Notes under the pieces: generated by a model | Told to the model about the DNA's origin: nothing | The model's database searches: none | Seen by the model: the letters and a program-made list of their open reading frames with translations, nothing else | Position numbers and translations under genes: made by a program | Part shown: one piece after another, positions 2,069-64,000 of the stretch | Position numbering within the stretch: the stretch's first letter is position 1 | How the letters are laid out: each line of letters starts with the position of its first letter | Assembly (NCBI GenBank): GCA_951406725.2 | Contig: OX597841.1 | Span: forward strand, 22,506,001-22,570,000 | Direction of reading: 5' to 3' | Length of the DNA: 64,000 nucleotides | Origin: Octopus vulgaris | Lineage: Eukaryota

Positions 2069-2431
2069 AATATCAGATGACATTGGCATAACTGAAGATA
2101 CGTTCTCATTATTTATCATCTTTTAAAGACCAAAATGAAAATATTGTACAGAACAGATATATAAGATTGTTTCTATAAATCTGTGGCGGAATTCCTCTGA
2201 TATATTTACTCTGAAATGTGTTATTAGCAAATCTTCTGGACATCACTGGCTGGAGTGTCTACAAGATGTGTCTCTTTGCAAATTAAACTTGGGTAAATTT
2301 ACTAACGAGTTTTGGGACAAAGGTAACACTGGACAGAAATACAGCAGTCGAAATACTTGCAAACAAAAGACTATAGAAGTACAAAGAAGAAAACATATAT
2401 TTATATATTTTGTGATTTTCAAAGAAACATA

Positions 2432-10920: not shown

Positions 10921-11276
10921 CACTGACAAGAGATTATTGAAAGTAGTCATTACTCATTTTGCCCCATCTTAGTCATGATTTTTGATAATTGAAAATTACC
11001 AAATTAGACACTAAACGGGGGGTAAAAATTGATCCGGAATCTAAGAGAGAGAAGAATATTGATGGTTAAACACCGAACATCATCCAGATAATTTATTAGT
11101 AACCTCGATTATTATCGGATTGAGAGTTGAGGGAAAATTTCTTGACAATTAAAAGGACCTGCAACTCCAACAACTATAAGGACAAATTCCCAGTCCTAAA
11201 TATATATTTCTTTACTCACCACAAGGGGCTAGACACAGAGGGGACAAACAAGGCCAGAAAAACGGATTAAGTCGAT

Positions 11277-21235: not shown

Positions 21236-22489
21236 TTAATGTGGTGTTTCTCCTGCATGAATACGTTTGTGATGACTTAGAGTAGTACTGGCGGAGAATG
21301 ATTTACTACAAATAACACAGTGATATGGCTTCTCTCCTGTATGGATATGTTTATGATCAGTTAAAGACCTTTTGCGTGAGAATGATTTACCGCAGATATT
21401 ACAGGAATATGGTGTCTCTCCTGTGTGAACACGTATGTGAAAAAGTAAAACGCTTCGATCAGAGAATGATTTACCGCAGATATCACAGTGATGAGGCTTC
21501 TCCCCTGTATGAATACGCTTATGTGTAGTCAAGCTATATTTTTGAGAGAATGATTTGCTACAGATGTCACAGTGAAACGGCTTCTCTCCTGTATGAACAC
21601 GTATGTGAGAAAGTAAAACACTTCGATCAGAGAATGCGGTACTGCAGATGTCACAGTGATAAGGCTTCTCCCCTGTATGAATACGTTTGTGTAAAGTCAA
21701 GTTATATTTTCTAGGGAATGTTTTACCACAGATGTCACAGTGGAATGGCTTCTCCACTGTATGAACACGTATGTGATAATTTAAAGCACTTTGGTAACAG
21801 AATGATGTACCACAGATATCACAGTGATAAGGCTTCTCTCCAGTATGAAGACGTTTGTGTGTGGTCAAGTTACCTTTTCGTGAGAATGATTTACCACAGA
21901 TGTCACAGTGAAATAACTTTTCCCCTGTATGAAGACGTACGTGAGAATTTAAAGCACTTTGGTCAGAGAATGACCTTCCACAGACATCGCAATGATAAGG
22001 CTTCTCTCCAGTATGACGACGTTTGTGTGCAGTCAAGCCGATTTTTTGAAAGAATGATTTACCACAGATGTTACACTGATGTGGCTTCTCTCCTGTATGA
22101 ATACGTTTGTGTGTAGTTAAGTAACTTTTTTGATAGAATGATTTACCACAGATGTCACAGTGAAATGGCTTCTCCCCTGTATGAATACGCTTATGTGAAG
22201 TCAAATTACTGGCTGCAGAGAATGATTTACCACAGACATCACAATGATACGGTTTCTCTCCAGTATGGCTATGTCTGTGACTAATTAAGTTACTACTTAC
22301 AGAAAACGATTTACCACAGGTGTCACAGTGAAATGGCTTCTCCCCTGTATGAATACGTTTGTGCCTTTCCAAGTCTCCCTTTTGAGAGAAGGACTTTTTA
22401 CACACATCACAGTCATGTGACAATTTTTGTCCCCCTTTTTCACTATTTTCTGGAAAAATCAGTTCCTTTGGTTTCTCACTCTTTTCCAT
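21236..22489 (-). CDS. C2H2 zinc-finger protein ZNF-C, 417 aa, 14 fingers
   Basis: ORF from MEKSEK to HAGETPH-TAA. The stop falls in a linker; a decayed 15th finger lies beyond the SINE insertion (~20615-20700). Confidence 0.9.
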
Positions 22490-23449
22490 TGTTTTTCTTC
22501 AAAATCACAAATTTTTTTTTCTTCTTTTTGATTTTATGGTCTTTTCTTTACAAATATTTCAACTGCTGAATTTCTGTCCATTGTTACCTTTGTCCCAAAA
22601 CTCTTTAATGAATTTATCCAAGTTTAATTTGCAAAGAGACACATCTTGTAGACACACCAGCCAGTGATGTCCAGAAGGTTTCCTAATAACACATTTCAGA
22701 GTAAATATATCAGAGGAATTCTGCCATAGATTTATAGAAACAATCTTATATATCTGTTCTGTACAATATTTCCATTTTGGTCTTTAAAAGCTGATAAACA
22801 ATGAGAATGTATCTTCAGTTATGCCAATGTCATCTGATATTCTGAAAGAATAAAGAAACAACAGTGTAAGATATAGAGGCTACTTAAAAAAATAGATTCA
22901 ACATTTCCATAGAGATAAACTCTAGAAACAAAGATTTACCTGAACAACAGAACTTTTTAATTCATTAAAATTTACATCAGAAAATCTTGTGTGAAGCTAA
23001 CATATTTGTAAACTCCAGCTACACATTCACATTTTTAAATACATATTATAAAAATAAACAGAACACCATGTTGAATCGTTAGCTCCTACACACATTTTTT
23101 TTTCTCTCCTTGTCTTTTTTTTCAGTGTATGTTTCTGTCGAAGAGCGTAGGCTCGAAACGTAAAAGACTTGTTTCATTTCTATTCCTGAGCGCCATACTA
23201 ATACATTTGTTTGTTTGTACTCCACCTGCCTTCGTCTTTTGTTTATTTTCGTAAACCTTCCCATTATAAAAATAAACATGTGACAGTCCATCTGTAAAGA
23301 GAAACGCTACTTCATCGATATTAAAATTAAAAGTTAATTCTTGTGTAAAATTTTACACCGAAGACAATGGAAGCGGTCCCCAACTCTATGTGCCCTGTTA
23401 ACGAAGCTGCCTGCCATTTTCCAACAGCTTTTACCCATGGTAGATCCGA

Positions 23450-31840: not shown

Positions 31841-33328
31841 TCATGTATGGGAACGTTTGTGAGATTTTAAATCACTTTGGTTAGAGAATGATTTACTACA
31901 GATGAGACATTGAAATGGCTTCTCCCCTGTATGAATACGTTTATGAGTAATTAGGCTATTACTCTGAGAGAATGATTTGTTACAGATGTTACACTGATAT
32001 GGCTTATCTCCTGTATGAATACGTTTGTGAGAAATGAAAGTACTTCGGTTAGAGAATGATTTACCACAGATGAGACATTGAAATGGCTTCTCCCCTGTAT
32101 GAATACGTTTATGAGTAATTAGGCTATTACTCTGAGAGAATGATATACTACAGATGTTGCACTGATGTGGCTTCTCACCTGTATGAATACGTTTATGCTT
32201 AGCTAAAGTACTTCGGTCAGAGAATGATTTACCACAGATGTCACAGTGATAAGGCTTCTCTCCTGTATGAATACGTATGTGTGCAGTCAGGCTACCTTTC
32301 TGAAAGAATGATTTACCACAGATGTCACAGTGAAATGGCTTCTCCCCTGTATGAATACGCTGGTGTATAGTGAAGTTTATGGCTAAAGTGAATGATTTAC
32401 CACAGATGTCACAGTAATAAGGCTTTTCCACTGTATGAATACGTTCATGTACAGTTAGGTTACTATTTACAGAGAAAGATTTGCCACAGATATTGCACTG
32501 ATATGGCTTTTCCAATGTATGGATACGTTTATGGTAAGTTAAAGAACTGTGGCCAGAAAATGATTTGCCACAGATGTTACACTGATATGGCTTCTCTCCT
32601 GTATGAATACATTTATGATAAGTTAAAGCACTACTTTGAGAGAATGATTTACCACAGATATTACAGGAGTACGGTTTCTCTCCTGTATGAACACGTTTGT
32701 GAGATTTTAAAACACTTTGGACAGAGAATGATGTACCACAGACATCACAGCGATAGGGTTTCTCTCCTGTATGAAGACGTTTGTGGTTAGATAAGGTAAA
32801 CTTTCGAGAGAATGATTTACCACAGATATCACAGTGAAACGGCTTTTCCCCTGTATGAACACGTTTGTGAGAATTCAAAGTACTTCGGTCAGAGAATGAA
32901 TTACCACAGACATCACAGTGAAATGGTGTCTCTCCAGTATGAACACGTTTGTGTCTAGTTAAGTTATTTTTTTGAGAGAATGATTTACCACAGATTTCAC
33001 AATGATATGGTGTCTCTCCAGTATGAATACGTTTGTGTGTAGTTAAGTTACTGGCTGCAGAGAATGATTTACCACAGACACCACAATGATATGGCTTCTT
33101 CCCTGTATGGATATGTCGGTGACTAATTAAGTCACTACTTATAGAAAATGATTTACCACAGATTTCACATTGAAATGGCTTCTCTTCCATATGAATACGT
33201 TTGTGCCTATTCAAGTGACCCTTTTGTGAGAAAGACTTTTTACACACATCAGTCACGTGATAATTTCGCCTCTCTTTTTTGTTATCTTCTGGAAAAATCT
33301 GTTCCTTTAGTTTCTCACTTTTTTCCAT
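31841..33328 (-). CDS. C2H2 zinc-finger protein ZNF-D, 495 aa, 17 finger units (first lacks Cys1)
   Basis: ORF starts MEKSEK. Compensating -1/-2 deletions near 33250-33266. Stop is TGA at the Gly position of a TGEKP linker. Confidence 0.85.
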
Positions 33329-34080
33329 TATTTTTCCTTCAACTTCACAATATACCTTCTTTTTTTATTCTTTTTGCTTCTATAGTCTTTTGTTTACAAA
33401 TATTTCAACTGCTGTATTTCTGGCCACTGTTACCTTTGTCACAAAACAACTAAATTTATCCACATTCAATCTGCAAACAGGCTCATCTTGTAGACACTCC
33501 AGCCAGTGATGTCCAGAAGGTTTGCTACTAACACAATTCAGAGTAAATATATCAGAGGAATTCCACCAAAGATTTATAGAAACAATCTTATACATCTGTT
33601 CTGTACAATATTTTCCATTTTGGTCATTAAAAGATGAAAAATAATGAGAATGTATCTTCAGTTATGCCAATGTCATCTGATATTCTGAAATAATAAAGAA
33701 ACAACAGTGTAAGATATGGAGGCTACTTAAAAAAATACAGATTCAACATTTCCATAAAGATAAACTCTAGAAATAAACATTTACCTGAACAACAGAACTT
33801 TCTAATTTACTAAAATTTACATCAGAAAATCTTGTGTGAAGCTAACATATTTCTAAACTCCAGCTACACATTCATATTGTGTAACATTTATATGTATGTG
33901 TGTATGTACACTCATACACATACTTCAAACTACCAGTACCTTCCACTGACCATTCTCCTATGCACATGTGTAGGTAGACACACAACAGGAGCCACTCCTA
34001 CTATAAATTCTTCTGATGACCTTAAAGGATACTAAGCCCAACCACACATATAGATAAACAGCCACAACCACACACACACA

Positions 34081-39111: not shown

Positions 39112-39633
39112 AAACAAATATCTTGTCTTTTACGTGCTCAAAGAGAATGGCGATAGTTTTCTAAAACAGTAATCAAATTTTGTTATAATGTTTTGAATGC
39201 AGTTTGGAAATGTTGAATCTGTATTTTTTTAAGTAGCCTCTATATCTTACACTGTTGTTTCTTTATTATTTCAGAATATCAGATGACATTGGCATAACTG
39301 AAGATACGTTCTCATTATTTATCAGCTTTTTAAAGACCAAAATGGAAATATTGTACAGAACAGATATATAAGATTGTTTCTATAAATCTGTGGTGGAATT
39401 CCTCTGATATATTTACTCTGAATTGTGTTATTAGCAAACCTTCTGGACATCACTGGCTGGAGTGTCTACAAGATGAGTCTCTTTGCAAATTAAACTTGGA
39501 TAAATTTACTAAAGAGCTTTGGGACAAAGGTAGCAATGGACTGAAATACAGCAGTCGAAATACTTGCAAACAAAAGACTATAGAAGCAAGAAGAAGAAAA
39601 AAATATCTATATTGTGTTTTTCGAAGAAAAATA

Positions 39634-41127
39634 ATGGAAAAAGGTGAAAAATTAAAGGAAGTGGTTTTTCCTGAGGATAGAGAAAAAGGGAGCAGAAAAT
39701 TGTCACATGACTGTGATGTGTGTAAAAAGTCCTTCTCTCAAAAAGGATATTTGAATAAGCACAAACGTATTCATACAGTAGAGAAGCCATTTAAATGTGA
39801 CATCTGTGGTAAATCATTTTCTATAAGTAGCCAATTAATCAGTCACAGTCATAGCCATACTGGAGAGAAGCCATTTCATTGTGGTGTCTGTGGTAAATCA
39901 TTCTCTTCATCCAGTGTCTTTGCTACACACAAGCGTATTCATACAGGGGAGAAGCCATTTCACTGTGACATCTGTGGTAAATCATTCTTTCAAAAACACA
40001 ACTTGACTAGACACAAACGTCTACATACTAGGGAGAAACCCTATCCCTGTGATGTCTGTAGTACATCATTCTCTGACCGAAGTGCTTTAAATTATCACAA
40101 GCGTGTTCATACAGGGGAGAAGCCATTTCACTGCGACATTTGTGGTAAATCATTCTCTCAAAAATGTGACTTATCTAGACACAAACGTATTCATACAGGA
40201 GAGAAGCCTTATCCCTGTGATGTCTGTGGTACATCATTCTCAGACCATAGTATTTTAACCACTCACATACGCGTTCATACAGGAGAGAAGCCATATCAGT
40301 GTAACATCTGTGGTAAATCATTCTCTCAAAGTAGTGTTTTAACTTCTCATAAACGTATTCACACAGGAGAGAAGCCATATCAATGCAACATCTGTGGCAA
40401 GTCTTTTTCTAGAAGTAGCACCCTAACTAAGCACAAACGTGTTCATACAGGAGAGACACCATATTTATGTGATATCTGTGGTAAATCATTCTCCCAAAGT
40501 GATAGCTTAGCTACTCACAAGCGTTTTCATACAGGGGAGAAGCCATATGGCTGTGATATCTGTGGTGAATCATTTTCTGTAAGTACTTACTTAATCAATC
40601 ACAGACATATCCATACAGGGGAGAAGCCATATCACTGTGATACTTGTGGTAAATCATTCTCTTCAGCCAGTGTCTTCGCTACCCACAAACGTATTCATAC
40701 AGGTGAGAAGCCATTTGACTGTGACGTTTGTGGTAAATCATTCTATCAAAAATATAAATTAACCACACACAAACGTATTCATACAGGAGAGAGGCCGTAT
40801 CACTGTGATGTCTGCGGTACATCATTCTCTGGCCAAAGTGCTTTAAATTCTCACATGCATCTCCATACGGGAGAAAAGCAATTTCACTGTGACATTTGTG
40901 ATAAATCATTCTCTCAAAAATATAACTTGACTAGACACAAACGTATTCATACCAGGGAAAAGCCTTATCACTGTGATGTCTGTGGTACATCATTCTCTGA
41001 CCAGAGTGCTTTAAATACTCATATACGTGTTCATACAGGGGAAAAACTATTTCACTGTGACATCTGTGGTAAGTCATTCTCACAAAAAAATAACTTAACT
41101 AGACACAAACATATTCATACTGGTTAG
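39634..41127 (+). CDS. C2H2 zinc-finger protein ZNF-E, 497 aa, 17 fingers
   Basis: ATG at 39634 (MEKGEK), acceptor at 39273-39274. Stop is TAG at the Glu position of a TGEK linker. Confidence 0.92.
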
Positions 41128-42924: not shown

Positions 42925-43124
42925 AGCAATTTCCTCCAGATTTTGAATAAGAGTTGTTTAAGGATGTTGAACAAAACACCCATGTTTCCAGAGGTGAATT
43001 ATTTAAACTCCAAAGAATCCCTCTCAACACATGGCTCTGATGCTCCCCCTCTACTTCTTTCTGGAATTGAGAATTCAAATTTCAGAAGATTAGTACTTAG
43101 TCCCTGTCACTTAGCGGTTTGGCA

Positions 43125-46041
43125 AAAGAGACCGATAGAATAAGTACTGGGCTTACAAAAGGATAAGTCCCGGGGTCGAGTTGCCGGATTAAAGGCGGTG
43201 CTCCAGCATGGCCGCAGTCAAATGACTGAAACAAGTAAAAGAGACTGATAGAATAAGTACTGGGCTTACAAAGAATAAGTCCCGGGGTCGAGTTGGCTGA
43301 TTAAAGGCGGTGCTCCAGCATGGCCGCAGTCAAATGACCGAAACGAGTAAAAGAGACCGATAGAATAAGTACTGGGCTTACAAAGAATAAGTCCCGGGGT
43401 CGAGTTGCCGGATTAAAGGCGGTGCTCCAGCATGGCCGCAGTCAAATGACTGAAACGAGTAAAAGAGACCGATAGAATAAGTACTGGGCTTACAAAGAAT
43501 AAGTCCCGGGGTCGAGTTGCCCGATTAAAAGCGGTGCTCCAGCATGGCTGCAGTCAAATGACTGTAACAAGTAAAAGAGACCGATAGAATAAGTACTGGG
43601 CTTACAAAGAATAAGTCCCGGGGTCGAGTTGGCCGATTAAAAGCGGTGCTCCAGCATGGCCGCAGTCAAATGACCGAAACAAGTAAAAAGACCGATAGAA
43701 TAAGTACTGGGCTTACAAAGAATAAGTCCCGGGGTCGAGTTGCCGGATTAAAGGCGGTGCTCAGCATGGCCACAGTCAAATGACTGAAACAAGTAAAAGA
43801 GACCGATAGAATAAGTACTGGGCTTACAAAGAATAAGTCCCGGGGTCGAGTTGCCGGATTAAAGGCGGTGCTCCAGCATGGCCACAGTCAAATGACCGAA
43901 ACAAGTAAAAGAGACCGATAGAATAAGTACTGGGCTTACAAAGAATAAGTCCCGGGGTCGAGTTGGCCGATTAAAAGCGGTGCTCCAGCATGGCCGCAGT
44001 CAAATGACCGAAACAAGTAAAAAAGACCGATAGAATAAGTACTGGGCTTACAAAGAATAAGTCCCGGGGTCGAGTTGCCGGATTAAAGGCGGTGCTCCAG
44101 CATGGCCACAGTCAAATGACTGAAACAAGTAAAAGAGACCGATAGAATAAGTACTGGGCTTACAAAGAATAAGTCCCGGGGTCGAGTTGCCGGATTAAAG
44201 GCGGTGCTCCAGCATGGCCACAGTCAAATGACCGAAACAAGTAAAAGAGACCGATAGAATAAGTACTGGGCTTACAAAGAATAAGTCCCGGGGTCGATTT
44301 GCCGGATTAAAGGCGGTGCTCCAGCATGGCCGCAGTCAAATGACTGAAACATGTAAAAGAGACCGATAGAATAAGTACTGGGCTTACAAAGAATAAGTCC
44401 CGGGGTCGATTTGCCGGATTAAAGGCGGTGCTCCAGCATGGCCGCAGTCAAATGACTGAAACATGTAAAAGAGACCGATAGAATAAGTACTGGGCTTACA
44501 AAGAATAAGTCCCGGGGTCGAGTTGCCCGATTAAAGGCGGTGCTCCAGCATGGCCGCAGTCAAATGACTGAAACAAGTAAAAGAGACCGATAGAATAAGT
44601 ACTGGGCTTACAAAGAATAAGTCCTGGGGTCGAGTTGCCGGATTAAAGGCGGTGCTCCAGTATGGCCGTAGTCAAATGACTGAAACAAGTAAAAGAGACC
44701 GATAGAATAAGTACTGGGCTTACAAAGAATAAGTCCCGGGGTCGAGTTGCCCGATTAAAGGCGGTGCTCTAGCATGGCCGCAGTCAAATGACTGAAACGA
44801 GTAAAAGAGACCGATAGAATAAGTACTGGGCTTACAAAGAATAAGTCCTGGGGTCGAGTTGCCGGATTAAAGGCGGTGCTCCAGCATGGCCGTAGTCAAA
44901 TGACTGAAACAAGTAAAAGAGACCGATAGAATAAGTACTGGGCTTACAAAGAATAAGTCCTGGGGTCGAGTTGCCGGATTAAAAGCGGTGCTCCAGCATG
45001 GCCGTAGTCAAATGACTGAAACAAGTAAAAGAGACCGATAGAATAAGTACTGGGCTTACAAAGAATAAGTCCCGGGGTCGATTTGCCGGATTAAAGGCGG
45101 TGCTCCAGCATGGCTGCCGTCAAATGACTGAAACAAGTAAAAGAGACCGATAGAATAAGTACTGGGCTTACAAAGAATAAGTCCCGGGGTCGAGTTGCCC
45201 GATTAAAGGCGGTGCTCCAGCATGGCCGCAGTCAAATGACTGAAGCAAGTAAAAGAGACCGATAGAATAAGTACTGGGCTTACAAAGAATAAGTCCTGGG
45301 GTCGAGTTGCCGGATTAAAGGCGGTGCTCCAGCATGGCCGTAGTCAAATGACTGAAACAAGTAAAAGAGACCGATAGAATAAGTACTGGGCTTACAAAGA
45401 ATAAGTCCTGGGGTCGAGTTGCCGGATTAAAGGCGGTGCTCCAGCATGGCCGCAGTCAAATGACTGAAACAAGTAAAAGAGACCGATAGAATAAGTACTG
45501 GGCTTACAAAGAATAAGTCCCGGGGTCGAGTTGCCCGATTAAAGGCGGTGCTCTAGCATGGCCGCAGTCAAATGACTGAAACGAGTAAAAGAGACCGATA
45601 GAATAAGTACTGGGCTTACAAAGAATAAGTCCCGGGGTCGAGTTGCCCGATTAAAGGCGGTGCTCCAGCATGGCCGCAGTCAAATGACTGAAACAAGTAA
45701 AAGAGACCGATAGAATAAGTACTGGGCTTACAAAGAATAAGTCCTGGGGTCGAGTTGCCGGATTAAAGGCGGTGCTCCAGCATGGCCGCAGTCAAATGAC
45801 TGAAACAAGTAAAAGAGACCGATAGAATAAGTACTGGGCTTACAAAGAATAAGTCCCGGGGTCGAGTTGGCCGATTAAAGGCGGTGCTCCAGCATGGCTG
45901 CAGTCAAATGACTGAAACAAGTAAAAGAGACCGATAGAATAAGTACTGGGCTTACAAAGAACAAGTCCCGGGGTCGAGTTGCCCGATTAAAGGCGGTGCT
46001 CCAGCATGGCCGTAGTCAAATGACTGAAACAAGTAAAAGAG
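43125..46041 (+). repeat. 112-bp tandem repeat (~26 copies) made of the 3' end of a CORE-like SINE (family S2)
   Basis: Unit gagaccgatagaataagtactgggcttacaaagaataagtcccggggtcgag...gactgaaacaagtaaaa (period 43355 to 43467); the same sequence forms the 3' end of dispersed S2 copies. Confidence 0.96.
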
Positions 46042-46111: not shown

Positions 46112-48797
46112 TTATTTGTCATAATGAAAGAAAGCAAAAGATTGTCGTCCTATGGTAATCCCAAAAACCACGAACGAAACGTCTGTAATATCAAAACCAA
46201 GAACTGTAAAGACATCATTATCATCCCATCTGAGGAGTAAATATTCTTGAATATTTTCAGATGTTTGGTGTTCAATATGTCCAGGTATTTGGTAAATATT
46301 GCTGTATTTATCTGTTATATAAACACAGTCGCCACGTGTGGTTAGATACGGTCTGTACATATTATACTCAATATCTCCTGATAGTTTCATCTTCCTGATC
46401 AGATGTTCCCTATACCAACAGACAACATACTGATACCCACCATTCATATCTGCTGGCTCAACCATTTCCCAATTCATAACAACAATATCACCATCAGATG
46501 TCGCTATTACGTCACAAAATACCTTCTCCAATTCCAGCACTTCGTTCACCTCTCCTGAACAAATTTCCCGATTGAATTTACGCGTCTCACCATTGATATC
46601 AACTAAATCTACATAGGTGTGATAGTATCTTCCAGCCTCAGTTACGGCTCTAATATAATGACCACCACACACGAGTTGATTGTCGTTGTATTTATAAATA
46701 CTGTTGTAGAATTTTTCAGTTTTGATGGTTTTTAAACGACAGAGATCCCTGTTGAAGAACATCAGTTGTTCACCAAAGACGATTATGAAACACTGATCTG
46801 TCCACCGACATATGTCTAATGATTTTTGTTGTGGTAGTTGTTCATGTTGAAGTATGTCTCCCGTTGTTGTATTAATTAATGTAACCGTGTCTCTAAACAT
46901 CAACACACTCACGTTCTCATCCAACTTAATTAGTTTACTGTTATAATCTCTATTGTCCACATAAAAATAATTAACAGGTTCCTCGAATGCAGGAATGGAA
47001 AAAGGGACCATTGCTGTCCTATATGGAAGTCTCCTCACTGATATTTCATCAGTTCCTGACATACTCTCTGCTATGTAATTACCACATCTCACCTTTACTC
47101 TACCTTTACTAATTATTTCACCTGATTTATCTCTTCCTCTCCTCCCATCTCCTCTACTGTATTTCAGTTCATTAATTAATTCATTACTGAATATTCTATT
47201 ATCCCACTGAGATGTAATGGAAGGGAAATGAAGACCAGAATCAAGATTTAATAACGACACAGATTCCAGAATGTTCACTTGGTCCCCATCAATCTTTATG
47301 CAATGACATTCAATCAATTCAGTATGTGCGCACCAGTAAATATTCCCCACTTTTCTCCATATTACACCATAAGGGATGAGACTCGACCAAACTTTATGGT
47401 TCACCAAATCTTGTTTCAGTTGAAATATTTCTTGTCTGTTTGGAAGTGTGACCATTATCTCTCTTTCTCCTGTAAAACACACACCACCAACTAAACTTCC
47501 AACATTTCTGTGACATAACAACTTCCCGTCTTCATCGAATATTTTAACATTTCCATTATTGGCTTTTTCACACACAACTGTCTTTCCTTCCTCAGAGACA
47601 TCAATATCTTTCACTTGAACAGGAAATTTGTCTGTTTGCAAACAACAGGTAGGGAATCTCTCCCTATTAACATCAAACAAACCTTCAACATACAATTTAT
47701 CTCTGTGACTTCCAACAAACCTTGGTCCTTTACAGTCTATACTGTAGAAATTTACTTCACCTTTATAAATTCTTTCATTTAAAAATATTCTGTCATATTC
47801 ACCTGTGTATGTCAAGCACGTAATGGTTTCGTACAAACCGTAAACATCATATCTTTCCCACCATGCATTAATATACATATAACAGTCATCAATTGTCATG
47901 GGCTTAATGTTACTGTTATATTCCTTGTAGTGTCTAACTGAATATAAATACTGACCATCACTACTGAGGAAATTGATGAAATTGTCATTGCTGACAACAA
48001 TATCATCATTAGCAGTAACTGTAATATTGCATATGCCTTCAACATAATCAATAACCTCACCACCTCTCGTTAATAATGTCTCAGGTATGTCTATTTGCTT
48101 CATTATATTCACAGTCGAATGGATTTCATCAATATCAATGACATACAAAGTACGTTCATCTCCATCCCAACTACATAACAGTAGATTGTCCGAAAAAGAA
48201 GTAATATGTTTATATTTATCTCTCGTTTGGTAATTTACTAATGACAATGGAAATTCCACTTTTAATGTCAACAATCGGTATTTATCATCCTCAGTCGTAA
48301 TGACCAGTGTGTTTGACTGCCATCGACACATATTGATGGGAGAGACATTCAATTTGATAGAATCCATGAGTTGACCATCAAATGTGAATAACTTAACATT
48401 TTCATTTTTCCTGTCATATCCTGCAATCAGGTTATTTTCAGTAACAACCAAACGATCAATTTTCACTCGCAATTTGTCACCCAAATGTTGAGGGAGATGA
48501 ATATGTCTGGCTTTGTCAGAAACTGTCAGGTCCTGTAGATATAAAGTGGAAGACAACATTTCACTGACAGAAATGTTTCTGGAAAATACATCCACCAGGT
48601 CGATGTAATAATTAAGTTGATTATTAGTAACGAGATCTCTCAACACCAAATTATGATCATTTATGGCAAACATACGAGTGTTGTCTATCAGATAGATAAA
48701 CATTTTATCTATACAACCACCATAGAGATTGGGGGCAGGTTTCATTTGGGATAGTAAAACACTGGGGACCGTCTTACCACTACTACTACTACTGCTG

Positions 48798-48855
<58 letters not shown>

Positions 48856-51539
48856 CACTACCACCACTACTACTTCTACGACGACGTCTACTATCATGAC
48901 CACCACCACCAACACTAGTGCAGCATTGAAATACTCTTCTCTTAGTAACAATTAATAACTTTTGTGTTTCATTTTCTATTGCTAATGCTTTCACTAGAAA
49001 AGGGATATTAATTATCTTAATTACTTCAACTTGATTAAAGTTTTTAATGGCCAAAACATCTAAATGTGATGGTTTATCACAATAACAAACAATTTCACAT
49101 TCACCCATCTTACACACCCGTACATAAGGCTGTCTTAATGATATACTTCTCACTGTCTTTGATAGGTTTCCAATGACCCTTAATTGTTTCTGTAGGGGTA
49201 ATGTGACACCTATATGATTAGAATCCCATCGACATATATCTGTGGCTGTAGACGGCAGAGATAATCTGGACACAATGTCTCCTTCCTGAGAAATGTATAA
49301 CAAGCAATCATGCTTGATGTCAGACACCACCAACTGTCCATTGAACAGATTACATATTTTGCCAATGACAAGTTTTTGGTCATTCTCCTTTTCTTTGAGT
49401 CGTAGATTTAGATTTCTGATATAAGGTTTTTACGGGTGTAAACAACAGCCAGAAGACCGGTCATGATTCTTGTATAGAAGAACCCTGTTGAGTTGAGTGT
49501 CCGGGACATAAAGAGTTCCTTGGAAAACAGCAATGTGAGGGTGAACAGGGAAAGGCAGTTCCCACTGCCATTTCATTTCTCCATATAGATCGTAGCATCT
49601 GAGAATAGAGTGTCTCCTGAAGAGGACATAGAAATAAACATTATCAGAGTAGATGTGATGAGGGTAGCCATAGAATGGAAGGTATTTTTGAAAAAGTTCT
49701 TCACCACATGTGGAATAAAATACCATTTTATTTTCGCTTCCATCTACGACTACAAAATTAATTGGAGTTGCAGCAATGCTGACATTATGATGTCCCAGAG
49801 AAATTCTTTCTATAATGTCAACTTTATCATCCTTGATCAAGAGGATATGGACCTCGTGTTTGTTTCCATTTGTGGTTAGAGCTAAACACTTATTTGATAC
49901 AATATGACATAGTTTAATGTAATCAGTATGGACTTTCATTAAAGGGCCTTTCATTAGCCCAGGACATGTGATACACTGAAATGCTTTGTTTTCACGATAA
50001 AACACCAGAAATCCTTTAGAATTCATTCTACAAAAGCAAGAAGGAATCTCAAGGAAAGTTGAATTATTTTGGTTAATTATTTCTCCAGTCTCAGTGAATA
50101 ATATAGCTTTATTATTCCTGTAGAATATTAATATAGAAGATGTAGACATAGGTAGAATATTAGTAACGTTGTAGCAATCCTCAATATAAATATAGTTGTT
50201 CAATCTTGGGGTCCATAGCTGGGAGTTATATGACTGCCTGGGCCAAAAGTCTTCATTTGTTCCAATGATATGAAGGACATCAAAATAATCGGTTACAAAA
50301 ATGTTTTTTTTGCCAACAGAAATATGGCGGCATTTCATGCCAATTTCTCTTGTTGTCACATATCCGATAAATGAATATGTCCCTGGAGGTCCTTGTATGA
50401 CAAATAATATGTCCCTGGAGGACATAAAAATGGTTTTGATACACAGAGATGTGGCTTGGAATGTCCAGAGAATTGGTATCCACCTCAAATAACTGCTGGC
50501 CATCCACATTGTAACAGGTAACCCTGTTAATATTGGAAAAGGATACTAAGAGTTTATTTTGTGCTCCTACAGCAATATCTGTTGGTGTTTCTTTGGTTAT
50601 GAATTCGTATGTTATTCTATTCTCTTCCCAGTCAATGACGTATATGGTCCGACCAAACAGTTCTACACCTATAAGCGTAGAATGTTCCAAATAAGAAACC
50701 AAGATTAATCCTAGCTGAATTCTTTTGATTTTAAAACTTAAAGGGTTGATAATAAGAATCATTTTTCTAAAGGGGAGGGTGGCCAGGACTGTGTCTTCAC
50801 TGATTCTGGTAAAGTCAGTAACAGAAGATGAGCAATGAACATCGTTTCTGTTGCCGTCTCTTGTTACACAACATATTGACATGCAGTGGCGGGAATATGT
50901 TACAATTCCCCCTTGTATGACAACAATATTGGATATTGGGTTGCTTAAGTCTTCACCAGATTCCTCAATCTTTGCTTCTCTGGTTACAACCGAAGAATGT
51001 GGCCGAAATTTCTTGATTATTTTTGGTGCTTCAATGGTTTTGTGTTTGTCTTGAAAAACATTTGTCTTAACGTATTGTTCCAGAAAACATTCAAGATTCG
51101 CAAAAATGACAAAATCTTGGCTGTAATTATACTTCTTAATGTCTTTCTGCAAAATTTCTATTTTCTGTGTAAAATCTTTTAGAAAAGTATTTTCATCCAT
51201 TCCTATTCTTTTTAAAAAAGTACATATTTCTTTCCGAGAATTTATCAACAAATCAATTTTGTCCTCATAGGCATTGAATCTTGTATAATATACACGTTTG
51301 TCCAAAATATCTCCTTTTCTAATTATTTCCCAGTTTTTATCGTCTCCTTTATGTCTTTTTTGTTTTGTTGTTGGCTGAGATGAAGATCGTTTCTGTGATA
51401 CTTCTCGCCTTGATCCATCATCTCTCCAGTATCGGCACTTTTTATGATAGACATCTTCTTCTCTTTCTGATGTTGAGCCCCAGGAGGATCTTTTCAGGGA
51501 TGCAAGTCTTCTTGAAGTATTTCCTGATTTGTCTTCCAT
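46112..51539 (-). pseudogene. Large single-exon gene, ~1800 aa when joined: basic N-terminus, short coiled-coil-like segment, then ~6 tandem NHL-like beta-propeller modules; one frameshift (~50370-50420) and one in-frame TAA (49430-49432)
   Basis: Three track ORFs (50280-51539, 49430-50509, 46112-49333) join. The last two share a frame, with 32 sense codons after the TAA. Recurrent blade motifs: DFTRISEDTVLATLP, CFCRMNSKGFLVF, DICRWDSNHIGVTLP, NMCRWQSNTLVIT, GVCFTGEREIMVTLP, DICRWTDQCFIIV. Acceptor ttttcttcatAG lies 7 nt before the ATG. Confidence 0.75.
48775..48912 (-). repeat. (AGT)n/(GGT)n/(CGT)n microsatellite encoding an in-frame Gly/Arg/poly-Ser insert
   Basis: (tac)n run on the plus strand; translation GGGGHDSRRRRRSSSGGSG(S)n in the 1073-aa ORF. 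Confidence 0.95.
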
Positions 51540-52176
51540 AGTGAATCTATGAAGAAAAATAAGAAAAACAATTAGCTTAGTGAAAGCGTCAAAGTTTCAG
51601 GGACATAATGATTCCTTCCTTATTTCAAATACTCAAAGGCAGCGAGCTGGCAGAATCGTTAGCACGCCGGGTGAAATGCTTAGCGGTATTTCGTCTGTCG
51701 CAACATTCTGAGTTCAAATTCTGCTGAGGTCGACTTTGCCATTCATCTTTTCGGGGGTCAATAAATTAGGTACCAGTTGGGTGCTGGGGTTGATGTGATT
51801 GACTGTTCCCCTCCCCACAAAATCCAGGCCTTGTGCCTATAGTAGAAAGGATTATTTTTAATACACAAAACATGTACGCATTTCTATCAAAGGTAGTCGA
51901 GTTGACATTTATTCAACTTTTCCCATGTAATCCTTTCTACTAAAGGCCTAAAGTTTGGTGGGAGGGCACAAGTCGATTACATCGACTCCAGTGCATAACT
52001 GGTACTTAATTTATAGACAACAAAAGGATGAAAGGCAAAGTCGACCTTGGCAGAATTTGAACTCAGAACGTAGCAACAGGTGAAATACCATTAAGCATCT
52101 TGCCCAGTGTGCTAACAATTCTGCCATCTTGCTGCCTTATTTTCCCAGTAAAAGGATTAGCAACAAACAACTTGTC

Positions 52177-52857
52177 ACATCATCATCATCATCATCATTT
52201 AGCTTCCGCTTTCCATACTAGCATGGGTTGGACGGTTCAACTGGGGTCTGTGAAGCTGGAAGGCTTCGTCAGGCCCAGTCAGATCTGGCAGTATTTCTAC
52301 GGCTGGATGCCCTTCCTAACGCCAACCACTCCGTGAGTGTAGTGGGTGCTTTTTACGTGCCACCTGCACAGGTGCCAGACAGAGCTGGCAAATGGCCACG
52401 AACGGATGGTGCTTTTACGTGCCACCGGCACGGGAGCCAGGCGGGGCTGGCAACGGACACGAACGGATGATGCTTTTACGTGCCACCAACACGGGGGCCA
52501 GACGGAGCTGGCAAACGGCCACGATCAGATGGTGCTTTTACGTGCCACCAACACGGGGGCCAGACGGAGCTGGCAAACGGCCACGATCAGATGGTGCTTT
52601 TACGTGCCACCAACACGGGGGCCAGACGAGGCTGGCAAACGGCCACGATCAGATGGTGCTTTTACGTGTCACCGGCACGGGGGCCAGGCGAGGCTGGCAA
52701 ACGGCCACGAAACGGATGGTGCTTTTACGTGTCACCGGCACGGGGGCCAGGCGAGGCTGGCAACGGCCACGAACGGATGGTGCTCTTACGTGTCACCGGC
52801 ACGGGGGCCAGGCGAGGCTGGCAAACGGCCACGAAACGGATGGCGCTTTTACGTGCT
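52177..52857 (-). mobile_element. RTE-3'-type element with ~8 internal ~60-bp repeats
   Basis: (cat)n tail, core, and repeats of gctggcaaacggccacga...ggtgcttttacgtg; tcacat occurs on both flanks. Confidence 0.8.
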
Positions 52858-53262: not shown

Positions 53263-53999
53263 TACTCTCTTTTACTTGTTTCAGTCATTTAACTGCGGCC
53301 ATGCTGGAGCACTGCCTTTAGTCGAGCAAATCGACCCCAGGACTTATTCTTTTGTAAGCCCAGTACTTATTCTATCGGTCTCTTTTACTTGTTTCAGTCA
53401 TTTAACTGCGGCCATGCTGGAGCACTGCCTTTAGTCGAGCAAATCGACCCCAGGACTTATTCTTTTGTAAGCCCAGTACTTATTCTATTGGTCTCTTTTA
53501 CTTGTTTCAGTCATTTAACTGCGGCCATGCTGGAGCACTGCCTTTAGTCGAGCAACTCGACCCCGGGACTTATTCTTTTGTAAGCCCAGTACTTATTCTA
53601 TTGGTCTCTTTTACTTGTTTCAGTCATTTAACTGCGGCCATGCTGGAGCAACGCCTTTAGTCGAGCAAATCGATCCCAGGACTTATTCTTTGTAAGCCTA
53701 GTACTTATTCTATCGGTCTCTTTTGCAGGGATGTAAACACACCACCATCGATTGTCAAGCGACGTTGGGGGAACAAAGACAGACAAACAAACATACACAC
53801 ATGCACACAGACACACATATATATACATATATACGACAGGCTTCTTTCAGTTTCTGTCTACCAAATCCACTCACAAGGCTTTGGTCAGCCCAAGGCTATA
53901 GTAGAAGACACTTGCCCAAGGTGCCACGCAGTGGGACTGAACCCGGAACCATGTGGTTGGTAAGCAAGCTACTTACCACACAGTCACTTCTGCGCCTAT
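53263..53999 (-). mobile_element. Full-length S2 (CORE-like, tRNA-derived) SINE with a tetramerised ~113-bp 3' end
   Basis: Head taggcgcag...gtgtggtaagtagcttgc, CORE-like ggcaccttgggcaagtgtctt, (TA)(TG) middle, and four tail units at 53263-53725. Confidence 0.88.
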
Positions 54000-55251: not shown

Positions 55252-56086
55252 AAGCGAACCATCCAAATGTGGCTGTTGCCAGTGCCACCCCAACGGGCCT
55301 CCGTGCCGGTGGCACGTAAAAAGCACCATCCGATCATGGCCTTGCCAGCCTCACCTGGCCCCCATGCCGGTGGCACATAAAAAGCACCATCCAACCGTTG
55401 CCATTCTCCAGCTGTGCCGGTGGCACGTAAAAAGCACCATCCGACCGTGGCCGTTTGCCAGCCTTGCCTGGCCTCTGTGCAGGTGGCACGTAAAAAGCAC
55501 CATCCGACCGTGGCCGTTTGCCAGCCTTGCCTGGCCTCTGTGCAGGTGGCACGTAAAAAGCACCATCCGACCGTGGCCGTTTGCCAGCCTTGCCTGGCCT
55601 CTGTGCAGGTGGCACGTAAAAAGCACCATCCGATCATGGCCGTTGCCAGCCTCGCCTGGCCCCTATGCCGGTGGCACGTAAAAAGCACCATCCGATCGTG
55701 GCCGTTGCCAGCCTCGCCTGGCCCCTGGTGCCGGTGGCACGTAAAAAGCACCATCCGATCATGGCCGTTGCCAGCCTCGCCTGGCCCCTATGCCGGTGGC
55801 ACGTAAAAAGCACCATCCGATCATGGCCGTTGCCAGCCTCGCCTGGCCCCTATGCCGGTGGCACGTAAAAAGCACCATCTGACCGTGGCCATTGCCAGCC
55901 TTGCCTGGCCCCCGTGCAGGTAGCACATAAAAAGCACCCACTACACTCTCGGAGTGGTTGGCGTTAGGAAGGGCATCCAGCCGTAGAAACCTTGCCAGAT
56001 CAAACTGGGCCTGATGCAGCCTTCTGGCTTCCCAGACCCCAGTTGAACCGTCCAACTCATGCCAGCATAGAAAACGGACGTTAAAC

Positions 56087-59132: not shown

Positions 59133-62100
59133 TCATCATCATCATTGTTTAACATCCGCTTTCCATGCTAGCATGGGTTGGACAGTTCAACTGGGGTCTG
59201 GGAAGCCCGAAGGCTGCACCAGGCCAGTCAGATCTGGCAGTGTTTCTACAGCTGGATGCCCTCCCTAATGCCAACCACTCTGTGAGTGTAGTGGGTGCTT
59301 TTTACGTGCCACCGGCACTGGTGCCAGGCGGAGCTGGCAAACGGCCACAATCGGATGGTACTCTTTACGTGCCACCGGCACTGGTGCCAGATGAGGCTAG
59401 CAAACGGCCACAATCGGATGGTGCTCTTTACGTGACACCGGCACAGGTGCCAGACGAAGCTGGCAAACGGCCACGCTCGGATGGTGCTTTTTACGTGCCA
59501 CCGGCATGGATGCCAGGCGTGGGTGGCAACAGCCACAATCGGTTGGTGTTTGTTATGTGCCACTGGCATGGAGGCCAGTCCATGCGACACTGGCTACGGC
59601 CACATTCGGATGGTTCTCTTACGTGCCACCGGCACTCGGCACTGGCTACGGCCACATTCAGATGGTTCTCTTACGTTCCACCGGCACTCGGCACTGGCTA
59701 CGGCCACATTCAGATGGTTCTCTTACGTGCCACCGGCACTCGGCACTGGCTACGGCCACATTCAGATGGTTCTCTTACGTTCCACCGGCACTCGGCACTG
59801 GCTACGGCCACATTCAGATGGTTCTCTTACGTTCCACCGGCACTCGGCACTGGCTACGGCCACATTCAGATGGTTCTCTTACGTTCCACCGGCACTCGGC
59901 GCTGGCTACGGCCACATTCAGATGGTTCTCTTACGTTCCACCGGCACTCGGCACTGGCTACGGCCACATTCAGATGGTTCTCTTACGTTCCACCGGCACT
60001 CGGCACTGGCTACGGCCACATTCAGATGGTTCTCTTACGTTCCACCGGCACTCGGCACTGGCTACGGCCACATTCAGATGGTTCTCTTACGTTCCACCGG
60101 CACTCGGCACTGGCTACGGCCACATTCAGATGGTTCTCTTACGTGCCACCGGCACTCGGCACTGGCTACGGCCACATTCAGATGGTTCTCTACGTTCCAC
60201 CGGCACTCGGCACTGGCTACGGCCACATTCAGATGGTTCTCTACGTTCCACCGGCACTCGGCACTGGCTACGGCCACATTCAGATGGTTCTCTTACGTTC
60301 CACCGGCACTCGGCACTGGCTACGGCCACATTCAGATGGTTCTCTTACGTTCCACCGGCACTCGGCGCTGGCTACGGCCACATTCAGATGGTTCTCTTAC
60401 GTTCCACCGGCACTCGGCACTGGCTACGGCCACATTCAGATGGTTCTCTTACGTTCCACCGGCACTCGGCACTGGCTACGGCCACATTCAGATGGTTCTC
60501 TTACGTTCCACCGGCACTCGGCACTGGCTACGGCCACATTCAGATGGTTCTCTTACGTTCCACCGGCACTCGGCACTGGCTACGGCCACATTCAGATGGT
60601 TCTCTTACGTTCCACCGGCACTCGGCACTGGCTACGGCCACATTCAGATGGTTCTCTTACGTTCCACCGGCACTCGGCACTGGCTACGGCCACATTCAGA
60701 TGGTTCTCTTACGTTCCACCGGCACTCGGCACTGGCTACGGCCACATTCAGATGGTTCTCTTACGTTCCACCGGCACTCGGCGCTGGCTACGGCCACATT
60801 CAGATGGTTCTCTTACGTTCCACCGGCACTCGGCACTGGCTACGGCCACATTCAGATGGTTCTCTTACGTTCCACCGGCACTCGGCGCTGGCTACGGCCA
60901 CATTCAGATGGTTCTCTTACGTTCCACCGGCACTCGGCACTGGCTACGGCCACATTCAGATGGTTCTCTTACGTTCCACCGGCACTCGGCACTGGCTACG
61001 GCCACATTCAGATGGTTCTCTTACGTTCCACCGGCACTCGGCACTGGCTACGGCCACATTCAGATGGTTCTCTTACGTTCCACCGGCACTCGGCGCTGGC
61101 TACGGCCACATTCAGATGGTTCTCTTACGTTCCACCGGCACTCGGCGCTGGCTACGGCCACATTCAGATGGTTCTCTTACGTTCCACCGGCACTCGGCAC
61201 TGGCTACGGCCACATTCAGATGGTTCTCTTACGTTCCACCGGCACTCGGCGCTGGCTACGGCCACATTCAGATGGTTCTCTTACGTTCCACCGGCACTCG
61301 GCACTGGCTACGGCCACATTCAGATGGTTCTCTTACGTTCCACCGGCACTCGGCACTGGCTACGGCCACATTCAGATGGTTCTCTTACGTTCCACCGGCA
61401 CTCGGCACTGGCTACGGCCACATTCAGATGGTTCTCTTACGTTCCACCGGCACTCGGCACTGGCTACGGCCACATTCAGATGGTTCTCTTACGTTCCACC
61501 GGCACTCGGCGCTGGCTACGGCCACATTCAGATGGTTCTCTTACGTTCCACCGGCACTCGGCGCTGGCTACGGCCACATTCAGATGGTTCTCTTACGTTC
61601 CACCGGCACTCGGCGCTGGCTACGGCCACATTCAGATGGTTCTCTTACGTTCCACCGGCACTCGGCGCTGGCTACGGCCACATTCAGATGGTTCTCTTAC
61701 GTTCCACCGGCACTCGGCACTGGCTACGGCCACATTCAGATGGTTCTCTTACGTTCCACCGGCACTCGGCACTGGCTACGGCCACATTCAGATGGTTCTC
61801 TTACGTTCCACCGGCACTCGGCGCTGGCTACGGCCACATTCAGATGGTTCTCTTACATTCCACCGGCACTCGGCACTGGCTACGGCCACATTCAGATGGT
61901 TCTCTTACGTTCCACCGGCACTCGGCACTGGCTACGGCCACATTCAGATGGTTCTCTTACGTTCCACCGGCACTCGGCGCTGGCTACGGCCACATTCAGA
62001 TGGTTCTCTTACGTTCCACCGGCACTCGGCACTGGCTACGGCCACATTCAGATGGTTCTCTTACGTTCCACCGGCACTCGGCGCTGGCTACGGCCACATT

Positions 62101-63985
62101 CAGATGGTTCTCTTACGTTCCACCGGCACTCGGCACTGGCTACGGCCACATTCAGATGGTTCTCTTACGTTCCACCGGCACTCGGCACTGGCTACGGCCA
62201 CATTCAGATGGTTCTCTTACGTTCCACCGGCACTCGGCACTGGCTACGGCCACATTCAGATGGTTCTCTTACGTGCCACCGGCACTCGGCACTGGCTACG
62301 GCCACATTCAGATGGTTCTCTTACGTTCCACCGGCACTCGGCACTGGCTACAGCCACATTCAGATGGTTCTCTTACGTTCCACCGGCACTCGGCACTGGC
62401 TACGGCCACATTCAGATGGTTCTCTTACGTTCCACCGGCACTCGGCGCTGGCTACAGCCACATTCAGATGGTTCTCTTACGTTCCACCGGCACTCGGCGC
62501 TGGCTACAGCCACATTCAGATGGTTCTCTTACGTTCCACCGGCACTCGGCACTGGCTACGGCCACATTCAGATGGTTCTCTTACGTTCCACCGGCACTCG
62601 GCACTGGCTACAGCCACATTCAGATGGTTCTCTTACGTTCCACCGGCACTCGGCACTGGCTACGGCCACATTCAGATGGTTCTCTTACGTTCCACCGGCA
62701 CTCGGCGCTGGCTACAGCCACGTTCGGATGCTTCTCTTACGTGCCACCGGCCCACGACGCTGGCTACGGCCACATTCTGATGGTTCTCTTACGTTCCACC
62801 GGCACTCGGCGCTGGCTACAGCCACATTTAGATGGTTCTCTTACGTTCCACCGGCACTCGGCACTGGCTACGGCCACATTCAGATGGTTCTCTTACGTTC
62901 CACCGGCACTCGGCGCTGGCTACGGCCACATTCGGATGCTTCTCTTACGTGCCACCGGCACTCGGCGCTGGCTACAGCCACGTTCGGATGCTTCTCTTAC
63001 GTGCCACCGGCCCACGACGCTGGCTACGGCCACATTCGGATGCTTCTCTTACGTGCCACCGGCCCACGGCGCTGGCTACGGCCACATTCGGATGCTTCTC
63101 TTACGTGCCACCGGCACTCGGCACTGGCTACGGCCACATTCAGATGGTTCTCTTACGTGCCACCGGCCCACGGCGCTGGCTACGGCCACATTCGGATGGT
63201 TCTCTTACGTGCCACCGGCACTCGGCACTGGCTACGGCCACATTCAGATGGTTCTCTTACGTTCCACCGGCACTCGGCGCTGGCTACAGCCACGTTCGGA
63301 TGCTTCTCTTACGTGCCACCGGCCCACGACGCTGGCTACGGCCACATTCGGATGCTTCTCTTACGTGCCACCGGCCCACGGCGCTGGCTACGGCCACATT
63401 CGGATGCTTCTCTTACGTGCCACCGGCCCACGACGCTGGCTACGGCCACATTCGGATGCTTCTCTTACGTGCCACCGGCCCACGGCGCTGGCTACGGCCA
63501 CATTCGGATGCTTCTCTTACGTGCCACCGGCACTCGGCACTGGCTACGGCCATATTCAGATGGTTCTCTTACGTTCCACCGGCACTCAGCGCTGGCTACA
63601 GCCACGTTCGGATGCTTCTATTACGTGCCACCGGCACTCGGCGCTGGCTACAGTCACATTCGGATGCTCCTCTTACGTGCCACCGGCCCACGGCGCTGGC
63701 TACAGCCACGTTCGGATGCTTCTCTTACGTTCCACCGGCACTCGGCGCTGGCTACAGCCACATTCGGATGCTTCTCTTACGTGCCACCGGCCCACGGCGC
63801 TGGCTACAGCCACGTTCGGATGCTTCTCTTACGTTCCACCGGCACTCGGCGCTGGCTACAGCCACATTCGGATGCTTCTCTTACGTGCCACCGGCACTCG
63901 GCACTGGCTACGGCCACATTCAGATGGTTCTCTTACGTGCCACTGGCTCTGGCATGACAACTACAAATTCCATTGATGTTGATAT
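59133..63985 (-). mobile_element. RTE-3'-type element containing an expanded 52-bp minisatellite
   Basis: (cat)n at 59133-59145 followed by the core; the far end (ctacaaattccattgatgttgat) matches ~18498-18520 of the RTE copy. Confidence 0.82.
59587..63945. repeat. 52-bp tandem repeat, ~84 copies
   Basis: Unit ggcactcggcactggctacggccacattcagatggttctcttacgttccacc. Confidence 0.97.
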
Positions 63986-64000
63986 GTATACATGTGTGTG

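Follow-up and report, generated by a model that had tools for sequence, protein, structure and literature searches.

The stretch of DNA examined here, called the window, comprises 64,000 nucleotides of the Octopus vulgaris contig OX597841.1 (positions 22,506,001 to 22,570,000), and its minus strand carries a gene at 51539–46112 that is interrupted by one frameshift and one stop. The gene belongs, as a broken copy, to an octopod family with at least 122 loci in this genome. With moderate confidence we read the intact members as encoding proteins that are predicted to contain six consecutive β-propellers, likely derive from a TRIM-NHL gene and likely serve as diversifying intracellular recognition receptors. 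A constant front half, two variable propeller faces, apparent exchange of segments between copies and the death of many copies together fit a recognition repertoire engaged in an arms race.

The number of loci in the O. vulgaris genome is a lower bound, merged from two genome searches: the first scored 107 of 241 candidates and gave 122 matches, the second scored 150 of 155 and gave 147. Ninety-six of the loci lie on the contig of the window (C28), 8 on C27, 7 on C31 and 2 on C29, and nine other contigs carry one each. Counting 121 fetched loci and the window copy, 36 are open for at least 1600 residues from a methionine (one of these ends early and one begins at an internal methionine), 65 are almost full-length yet broken, and the other 21 are partial. 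All 53 protein matches to an intact paralogue are unnamed Octopus records. Intact homologues exist in three Octopus species and in Argonauta; a profile search of 1.84 billion representatives found intact, full-length members of 1913 and 1925 residues in Argonauta hians. None of the 36 matches of this search was a six-module relative outside the octopods, a result that unannotated squid or vampire squid genes could escape. Two matches to bacterial-type DUF5122 repeats were set aside as generic propellers.

Predicted architecture and variable propeller faces

Two AlphaFold2 models of the intact paralogue L021 (residues 70–970 and 690–1781, with a mean predicted local distance difference test score, pLDDT, of 65.6 and 63.1) show all-beta modules built of four-strand blades (Table 1). 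The model of module 1 matches PknD with a Z-score of 20.3 (root-mean-square deviation, rmsd, 3.0; 232 aligned positions) and the NHL domain of TRIM2 with 19.7. The NHL domain of Brat is matched by module 2 (Z 20.9, rmsd 3.3, 250 aligned) and by module 4 (Z 23.0, rmsd 4.0, 253 aligned), in the latter case followed by Mei-P26, TRIM2 and TRIM71, and module 6 (model residues 802–1092) matches other propellers with Z 17.5 (rmsd 3.2, 229 aligned). Other six-bladed propellers score merely 1–3 Z units below the NHL matches, and the fold alone is therefore no proof of NHL descent. Foldseek searches with the whole models returned generic multi-propeller matches only. The sequence-only reading had proposed six propellers; the models agree for modules 1, 2, 4 and 6, while modules 3 and 5 are modelled in part with pLDDT below 50, and module 5 also has a Gly/Arg-rich insert predicted at low confidence. 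The module starts were placed accurately by that reading, as the first strands begin at 50930, 50161, 49366, 48460, 47614 and 46936, each within 10 bases of its position.

The modules are only about 20% identical to one another. Profile comparison with hhalign relates module 3 to module 6 (expect value, E, 4e-9), module 4 to modules 6 (1e-7), 5 (3e-6), 3 (2e-5) and 2 (2e-4), and module 1 to modules 2 and 3 (both 1e-3), the best of 15 column-shuffled control comparisons being 0.015; the pairs 1–6, 3–5 and 5–6 were not above chance. The Argonauta protein P0057 scores for all six modules and for the N-terminal helical domain. Given this architecture and the low identity between modules, the six-fold repeat dates far back, and all six modules were in place before the lineages of Octopus and Argonauta separated.

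The helical domain precedes module 1. A basic N-terminus (KQKRHK) with a short coiled-coil-like stretch had been described from the sequence; the basic part is present, and the helical part is predicted to form 3–4 helices of 10–21 residues rather than a long coiled coil. No consistent Pfam or PDB match to these helices was found, nor any profile match bearing on their origin as a remnant of a coiled coil, and an Atlas feature search gave only leads below 0.9. All 42 database matches of the domain are Octopus records and it is also present in P0057, so that it appears to be confined to the six-module family. A K[KR]x[KR] cluster lies within the first 100 residues of 22 of the 34 intact open reading frames (ORFs), and the KQKRHK-type tail of the window gene is a possible nuclear signal. 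A hydrophobic, signal-peptide-like stretch is found at the N-terminus of none of the 34, and as they lack a secretion signal the proteins are likely cytosolic or nuclear.

In the NHL domain of Brat the ligand-binding top surface is formed by the b-c and d-a loops (PMC4015489, available text). Loops of the octopod modules were divided by the model strands into top (b-c and d-a) and bottom (a-b and c-d) loops and compared among 27 intact genes, five divergent ORFs and two near-twins being left out here and in the likelihood tests. Ten of the 11 top loops of module 4 occur in 22–26 distinct versions, several of them variable in length, as against 3–13 versions of its bottom loops, and the central top loops of module 6 occur in 26–27. 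Non-synonymous divergence (dN) in modules 4 and 6 taken together is 0.35 in top loops (95% range 0.31–0.40) versus 0.13 in bottom loops; the corresponding values for modules 1 and 2 are 0.15 and 0.14. The bottom loops of module 4 are conserved, with a ratio of non-synonymous to synonymous rates (dN/dS, ω) of 0.29. Loops of the expanded clade and of Argonauta are longer and richer in Tyr and Trp than those of the genes on C2, C9 and at L046, and their charge is mixed. By residue count, the net charge of the top loops is +2 to +7 in module 1 of all 16 proteins considered and ranges from −27 to +7 in modules 4 and 6. Microsatellite insertions are present in the loops. The bias recurs in protein pairs of other lineages: two Argonauta copies differ at 24 of 102 top positions of module 4 versus 7 of 177 positions elsewhere, and L045 differs from its O. 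bimaculoides partner at 39 of 75 versus 31 of 176.

The strongest excess of amino-acid change is seen in disjoint pairs of young paralogues, drawn from the 34 ORFs and compared over equal-length segments only. In the top loops of module 4, ten pairs show 131.5 non-synonymous and 8.5 synonymous differences, a ratio of non-synonymous to synonymous differences per site (pN/pS) of 4.2 (p 5e-7), which stays between 3.2 and 5.2 and significant over the range of site counts assumed; five of the pairs supply nearly the whole signal. Eleven pairs give 176.8 and 24.2 differences in the top loops of module 6 (pN/pS 2.05, p 3e-4). The top loops of module 2 (57 and 11 differences, pN/pS 1.65) show no significant excess, and those of module 1 (20.5 and 24.5) have a pN/pS of 0.28. 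Over the whole tree, likelihood estimates of ω for the top loops of module 4 are about 1.6–1.7 (twice the log-likelihood difference, 16–18). Synonymous change is likewise high in the variable loops across the whole family, where ω is near 1; gamma models were abandoned, as they gave a poorer fit in 6 of 8 sets. From these sequence comparisons we take diversifying selection to be real on the top face of module 4 and probable on that of module 6, with a signal that would be blurred at depth by saturation.

Family history and relation to TRIM-NHL proteins

Two members lie as single copies on large chromosomes, on C2 (L061:1400-6478, a divergent member) and on C9 (L047). They are 31% identical to each other and 93.9% and 91.6% identical, respectively, to their counterparts in O. 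bimaculoides, where the best matches of L021 are about 70% identical; they are candidates for the ancestral function and good controls. In a FastTree phylogeny of modules 2–3, from which five short protein rows were dropped, the basal branches are old one-to-one lineages, and the window copy falls in a young, shallow clade of mostly own-species genes. Modules 1–3 evolve under purifying selection, with dN/dS of 0.32–0.46 (five divergent ORFs left out), and intact homologues with values below 1, which the sequence-only reading had named as part of the support for its proposal, thus exist as far as these modules go.

Paralogues retain the intron acceptor and common flanks, the pattern that segmental duplication, not retrocopying, would leave; no transposase, reverse transcriptase or helicase domain of Pfam is found in the gene. 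Two N-terminal classes, L026–L031, L033 and L035 on the one hand and L021–L025 on the other, are about 30% identical over the first 200 residues, yet both are joined to near-identical module 1–2 sequence. The window gene shares its acceptor directly before the ATG with paralogues such as L021–L025, and the other class is without it; RefSeq-type models in other Octopus species open with the same kind of N-terminus as the window gene. Identity to a given paralogue swings between 30% and 96% along the gene, and trees of individual modules agree on just 2–9 of 24 splits, which suggests the exchange of segments between copies. Partial copies with modules 4–6 only (L095, L109, L110, L112 and L131; C28, 6.9–10.3 Mb) were apparently amplified following truncation. 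Gaps were also tallied in 60 broken loci, of which 48 have a frame-shifting gap of more than 1 base and 20 a 1-base gap within a run of at least 5, but the counts were set aside as unreliable in the variable loops.

The closest relatives outside the family are cephalopod RING/B-box TRIM-NHL proteins with one propeller each. Pfam gave no match above its cut-off in the window frames, and its NHL threshold is missed by both the window copy and L021, the best family member reaching E 0.002. A profile match to Brat has E 0.0017, and the profile of modules 1–4 finds a cuttlefish RING/B-box/NHL protein (P0076, E 5e-8) as well as further B-box proteins; in the reverse search P0076 finds module 4 of the window gene (E 8e-5). 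The NHL domain of an intronless octopus B-box protein can be aligned to module 4 over 204 columns (probability 93.6), and an Atlas feature search with P0013 lists molluscan TRIM2-like NHL clusters first (0.93–0.94). Profile, reciprocal, fold and Atlas matches therefore agree with the earlier suggestion that these are NHL-type propellers related to molluscan TRIM-like proteins. The octopus genome itself has dispersed TRIM-like genes, each a single long frame with one propeller and a RING or B-box. Several of them, among L176–L189, have single frames of 430–1124 residues, some with RING or B-box and NHL. At L175:1971-7484 (C21) an 1838-residue single frame opens with RING and B-box, the remainder being without a Pfam match at E 0.001; it gave no match to a propeller module and was ruled out as a multi-propeller TRIM protein.

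An intronless TRIM-NHL gene that lost its zinc fingers and multiplied its propeller is the likely ancestor, and such an origin would explain the single coding exon. The family has in common with Brat, Mei-P26, TRIM2/3, TRIM71/LIN-41 and P0076 the six-bladed NHL-type propeller (Z 20–23), first-blade motifs and reciprocal sequence matches, and with the octopus TRIM-NHL genes the one long coding frame. In contrast to them it has no RING, B-box or filamin domain, no long coiled coil is predicted in it, it has six modules instead of one C-terminal propeller, and it numbers more than 100 copies with variable top loops. No RING or B-box match was obtained with Pfam in the three window frames or in P0002, P0057, P0060 and L061, in line with what the earlier reading had reported from the translations. 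The family is thus not TRIM-NHL by definition, though likely derived from one, and searches of Pfam, the PDB and the protein collections found no described family that it matches end to end. Several propellers per chain are also found in LRP2/LRP4, DDB1, IFT-A and UTP proteins, the top Foldseek matches. Whole-chain template modelling (TM) scores of 0.12–0.24 at 7–11% identity, however, show that only the fold class is shared, and neither EGF spacers nor a signal peptide nor a membrane helix is present in the octopod proteins.

One subfamily, found on C31, C28 and C4, is without the helical domain and begins at a phase-1 acceptor. At four of the eight loci examined, MIB2-like ankyrin and RING exons lie 12–45 kb upstream on the same strand as the propeller exon, and two gene models fuse them to it, with repeated short linker exons in between. 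The propeller exons of this subfamily are near-identical, whereas the MIB2-like exons upstream are diverse. In O. sinensis the models have a short upstream exon only, with no MIB2-like exons joined, and a search for independent support of the junction returned the query alone. A fusion of ligase and propeller in this subfamily is possible. MIB2-like ankyrin-RING genes are themselves expanded, with at least 155 exon matches (150 of 605 candidates scored) on C31, C29, C27, C1 and C9, and are dense on C31 and C29.

Possible functions

As to ligand class and effector step, we infer that modules 4 and 6 would bind fast-changing foreign ligands through their top-face loops, most likely proteins of viruses or intracellular parasites. 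The conserved modules 1–3 and the helical N-terminus would contact invariant host partners, either relaying the signal or bringing in a ligase in trans. Duplication, segment exchange and frequent gene death would renew the repertoire by birth-and-death evolution. The family is likely to work like known diversifying sensors, of which the fungal NOD-like receptors (NLRs) of the HET-E/HNWD type offer the nearest parallel: these have cytosolic WD40 propellers, an interaction surface under diversifying selection and exchange between members (PMC4986451, available text). The octopod proteins, predicted to be intracellular as well, are without a NACHT/NB-ARC or HET domain (Pfam gives no match to NACHT/NB-ARC, and the L021 models leave no room for it). 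Their blades are NHL-like and not WD40, and their within-gene repeats are old and about 20% identical, unlike the near-identical repeats of HET-E.

Pathogen ligands are ranked first, at what we judge to be about an even chance, and selfish elements second, as a rather unlikely choice. In the latter explanation the proteins would act in the nucleus or the germ line, their variable faces recognising transposon RNA or proteins in parallel to the C2H2 arrays. NHL top surfaces can bind RNA (PMC4015489, available text), 22 of the 34 ORFs have basic N-terminal clusters, the top face of module 1 is net basic and conserved, five zinc-finger ORFs lie in the same window, and an arms race with transposons would likewise yield pN/pS above 1. 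However, the top loops of modules 4 and 6 are long, aromatic and net −27 to +7, while the surface of Brat is uniformly basic, and residence on the same gene-dense small chromosome requires no functional link. As to RNA binding, one of the two functions suggested by the sequence-only reading, the variable faces are by residue count not consistently basic; the diversifying loops of the binding faces favour its other suggestion, pathogen binding, over a simple scaffold for RNA.

A role as multivalent RNA or protein scaffolds in ordinary development or in neurons, with the diversity of paralogues tuning endogenous targets, would suit the best structural matches, the NHL domains of Brat, Mei-P26, TRIM2 and TRIM71, and the conserved single-copy members. 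We consider it quite unlikely, given that 86 of 122 loci (about 70%) are broken or partial and that the differences between young copies are mainly amino-acid changes on a single face, a pattern that endogenous targets rarely produce. Slightly less probable still is that the expansion merely accompanies segmental duplication on a repeat-rich chromosome, few old members being important and the loops drifting by relaxed constraint and slippage. The predominance of broken loci, the whole-tree ω near 1 in the loops and their microsatellite insertions fit this account; yet drift predicts a pN/pS of 1, not 3–5, the equally exposed bottom loops of module 4 are conserved, and frames of 5.4 kb are still open in about 35 diverged copies. 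Systems of self/non-self or reproductive recognition also show duplication and positive selection. The fungal HET-type propellers are an example of such recognition (PMC4986451), but an intracellular role in gamete recognition, sperm competition or allorecognition signalling seems very improbable, as there is no secretion signal and the sequencing runs X4 and X5, from two studies, share with the window an identical 508-nt piece of module 4, so that variation seems to lie more between paralogues than between individuals.

Several observations weigh against diversifying intracellular recognition as well. The young-pair signal of module 6 is not significant at a synonymous fraction of 0.17 (p 0.06), and the young-pair pN/pS of modules 4 and 6 is near 1 in strands and bottom loops, pointing to weak constraint overall. 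The whole-tree ω of the module 4 top loops falls to 1.0 on the 38 codons of fixed-length loops, and that of module 6 is 1.0 overall and 0.46–0.49 in fixed-length loops. Pairwise and whole-tree dN/dS thus give no positive selection save in the alignment-dependent loops of module 4; saturation may explain the weakness of these tests, and relaxed constraint with misalignment may do so equally. Short modules make noisy trees, and the low sharing of splits is no proof of conversion. No known effector domain was found in the family, and the genes on C2 and C9 are single-copy and 94% and 92% identical to O. bimaculoides, so that the family's basic role may be other than an arms race.

More tentatively, and as a possibility we would not put above the doubtful, octopuses may have their own intracellular immune repertoire, in which dozens of six-propeller proteins would carry antibody-like variable loops on two of their propellers and shuffle them between genes; one subfamily would be spliced to MIB2-like ankyrin-RING ligase exons ahead of it, and each protein would recognise and mark a different invader protein. 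The recognition of intracellular pathogens by cephalopods is poorly known, and the family supplies actual genes to work on, a variable surface that is defined, and the single-copy genes on C2 and C9 as controls, which make the question directly testable. Tandem clusters on few chromosomes are a feature of the C2H2 zinc-finger, protocadherin and G-protein-coupled receptor expansions of octopus (PMC9795677, available text). The likeness lies in this arrangement, with zinc-finger genes interspersed here, and the protein is unrelated; the terms "NHL", "propeller" and "tripartite" were not found in the main text of that paper. No published account of the family was recognised by title or opening of the abstract, although orthogroup tables in the supplements of genome papers could list it as an unnamed expansion. 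Six LOC identifiers of the family led to no papers and are absent from three supplements of PMC9712504, and four family-related terms were not found in PMC13218726. The family has been overlooked because Pfam fails to recognise it and all 53 records are unnamed.

The window copy and its surroundings

Three minus-strand frames (50280–51596, 49430–50545 and 46112–49429) join behind a pyrimidine tract and AG as described in the sequence-only reading, with the AG at 51548–51547, just before the ATG at 51539, and the stop codon at 46112–46114. The acceptor implies a further exon upstream, so that the earlier designation of a single exon holds for the coding region and not for the whole gene. Module 2 of this copy has about 98% DNA identity to its nearest paralogues, and a poly-Ser microsatellite in module 3 (48775–48879) is expanded in it.

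Table 1. Features of the window gene (window numbering) and positions of related exons on other contigs or elsewhere on C28
Feature	Position	Strand	Basis
Splice acceptor (pyrimidine tract and AG)	51547..51575	-	sequence; 8 nt upstream of ATG
Start codon and basic tail (KQKRHK), predicted disordered	51300..51539	-	frames; model pLDDT <50 at start
Helical domain, 3–4 predicted helices	51056..51299	-	L021 model, pLDDT 50–74; alignment
Module 1, predicted six-bladed NHL-like propeller, split by frameshift in window copy	50263..50984	-	L021 model
Frameshift, net 19-nt insertion	50360..50405	-	alignments to 13 paralogues
Module 2, predicted six-bladed NHL-like propeller	49471..50206	-	L021 model
Premature in-frame TAA, linker of modules 2 and 3	49430..49432	-	frames; paralogue alignments
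Module 3, propeller-like	48664..49366	-	first 3–4 blades pLDDT ~60–78, remainder <50
Module 4, predicted six-bladed NHL-like propeller, hypervariable Tyr/Trp-rich top loops	47686..48508	-	model and loop variation
Module 5, degenerate or partial propeller (~4 blades suggested)	46960..47614 (lower bound approximate)	-	pLDDT <=73, long stretches <50
Module 6, predicted C-terminal six-bladed propeller, hypervariable central top loops	46112..46936	-	pLDDT mostly 70–90
MIB2-adjacent propeller exons (L079, L080, L155, L156)	C31:4675714-4706076
MIB2-adjacent propeller exons	C31:3147952-3196693
MIB2-adjacent propeller exons	C31:10462647-10512441
MIB2-adjacent propeller exons	C28:8157393-8187569

A 16-nt motif is duplicated locally at the frameshift, and the sequence around each lesion is private to the window copy (1 of 122 loci). 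Among the contigs listed for the runs X1, X2, X10 and X9 none spans either lesion at 98% likeness, which is uninformative as to whether the lesions are real or assembly errors; one contig of X5 is without the 19 extra letters, with 25 other differences, and may come from a paralogue. The window copy itself is probably a pseudogene.

Sequencing runs were compared as contigs, and depth was not taken as copy number or expression. None of the runs is recorded as RNA. A contig of X9, a run guessed to be RNA, fits 51356–51548 and diverges from the genome precisely where the acceptor lies, whereas a DNA contig of X1 continues through it. Runs guessed to be RNA, from three studies, have contigs over locus-specific parts of modules 4 and 6 with 0–5 differences. 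These contigs give a weak hint that the window copy is transcribed and spliced.

The zinc-finger neighbours named in the earlier reading are present as five C2H2 ORFs with 14–22 fingers on both strands (2327–3850, 7346–9310, 21236–22498, 31841–33364 and 39334–41127). A 621-residue frame at 11233–13098 contains a reverse transcriptase domain (RVT_1, E 1e-37) and is probably a fragment of a long interspersed nuclear element. Satellite arrays occupy 43124–46041 (112-bp unit, 70 bases from the end of the window gene), 52345–52856 (62 bp), 53266–53724 (113 bp), 55412–55938 (63 bp) and 59588–63954 (52 bp). Long plus-strand ORFs at 59153–63998 are translations of the 52-bp array and were rejected as genes.

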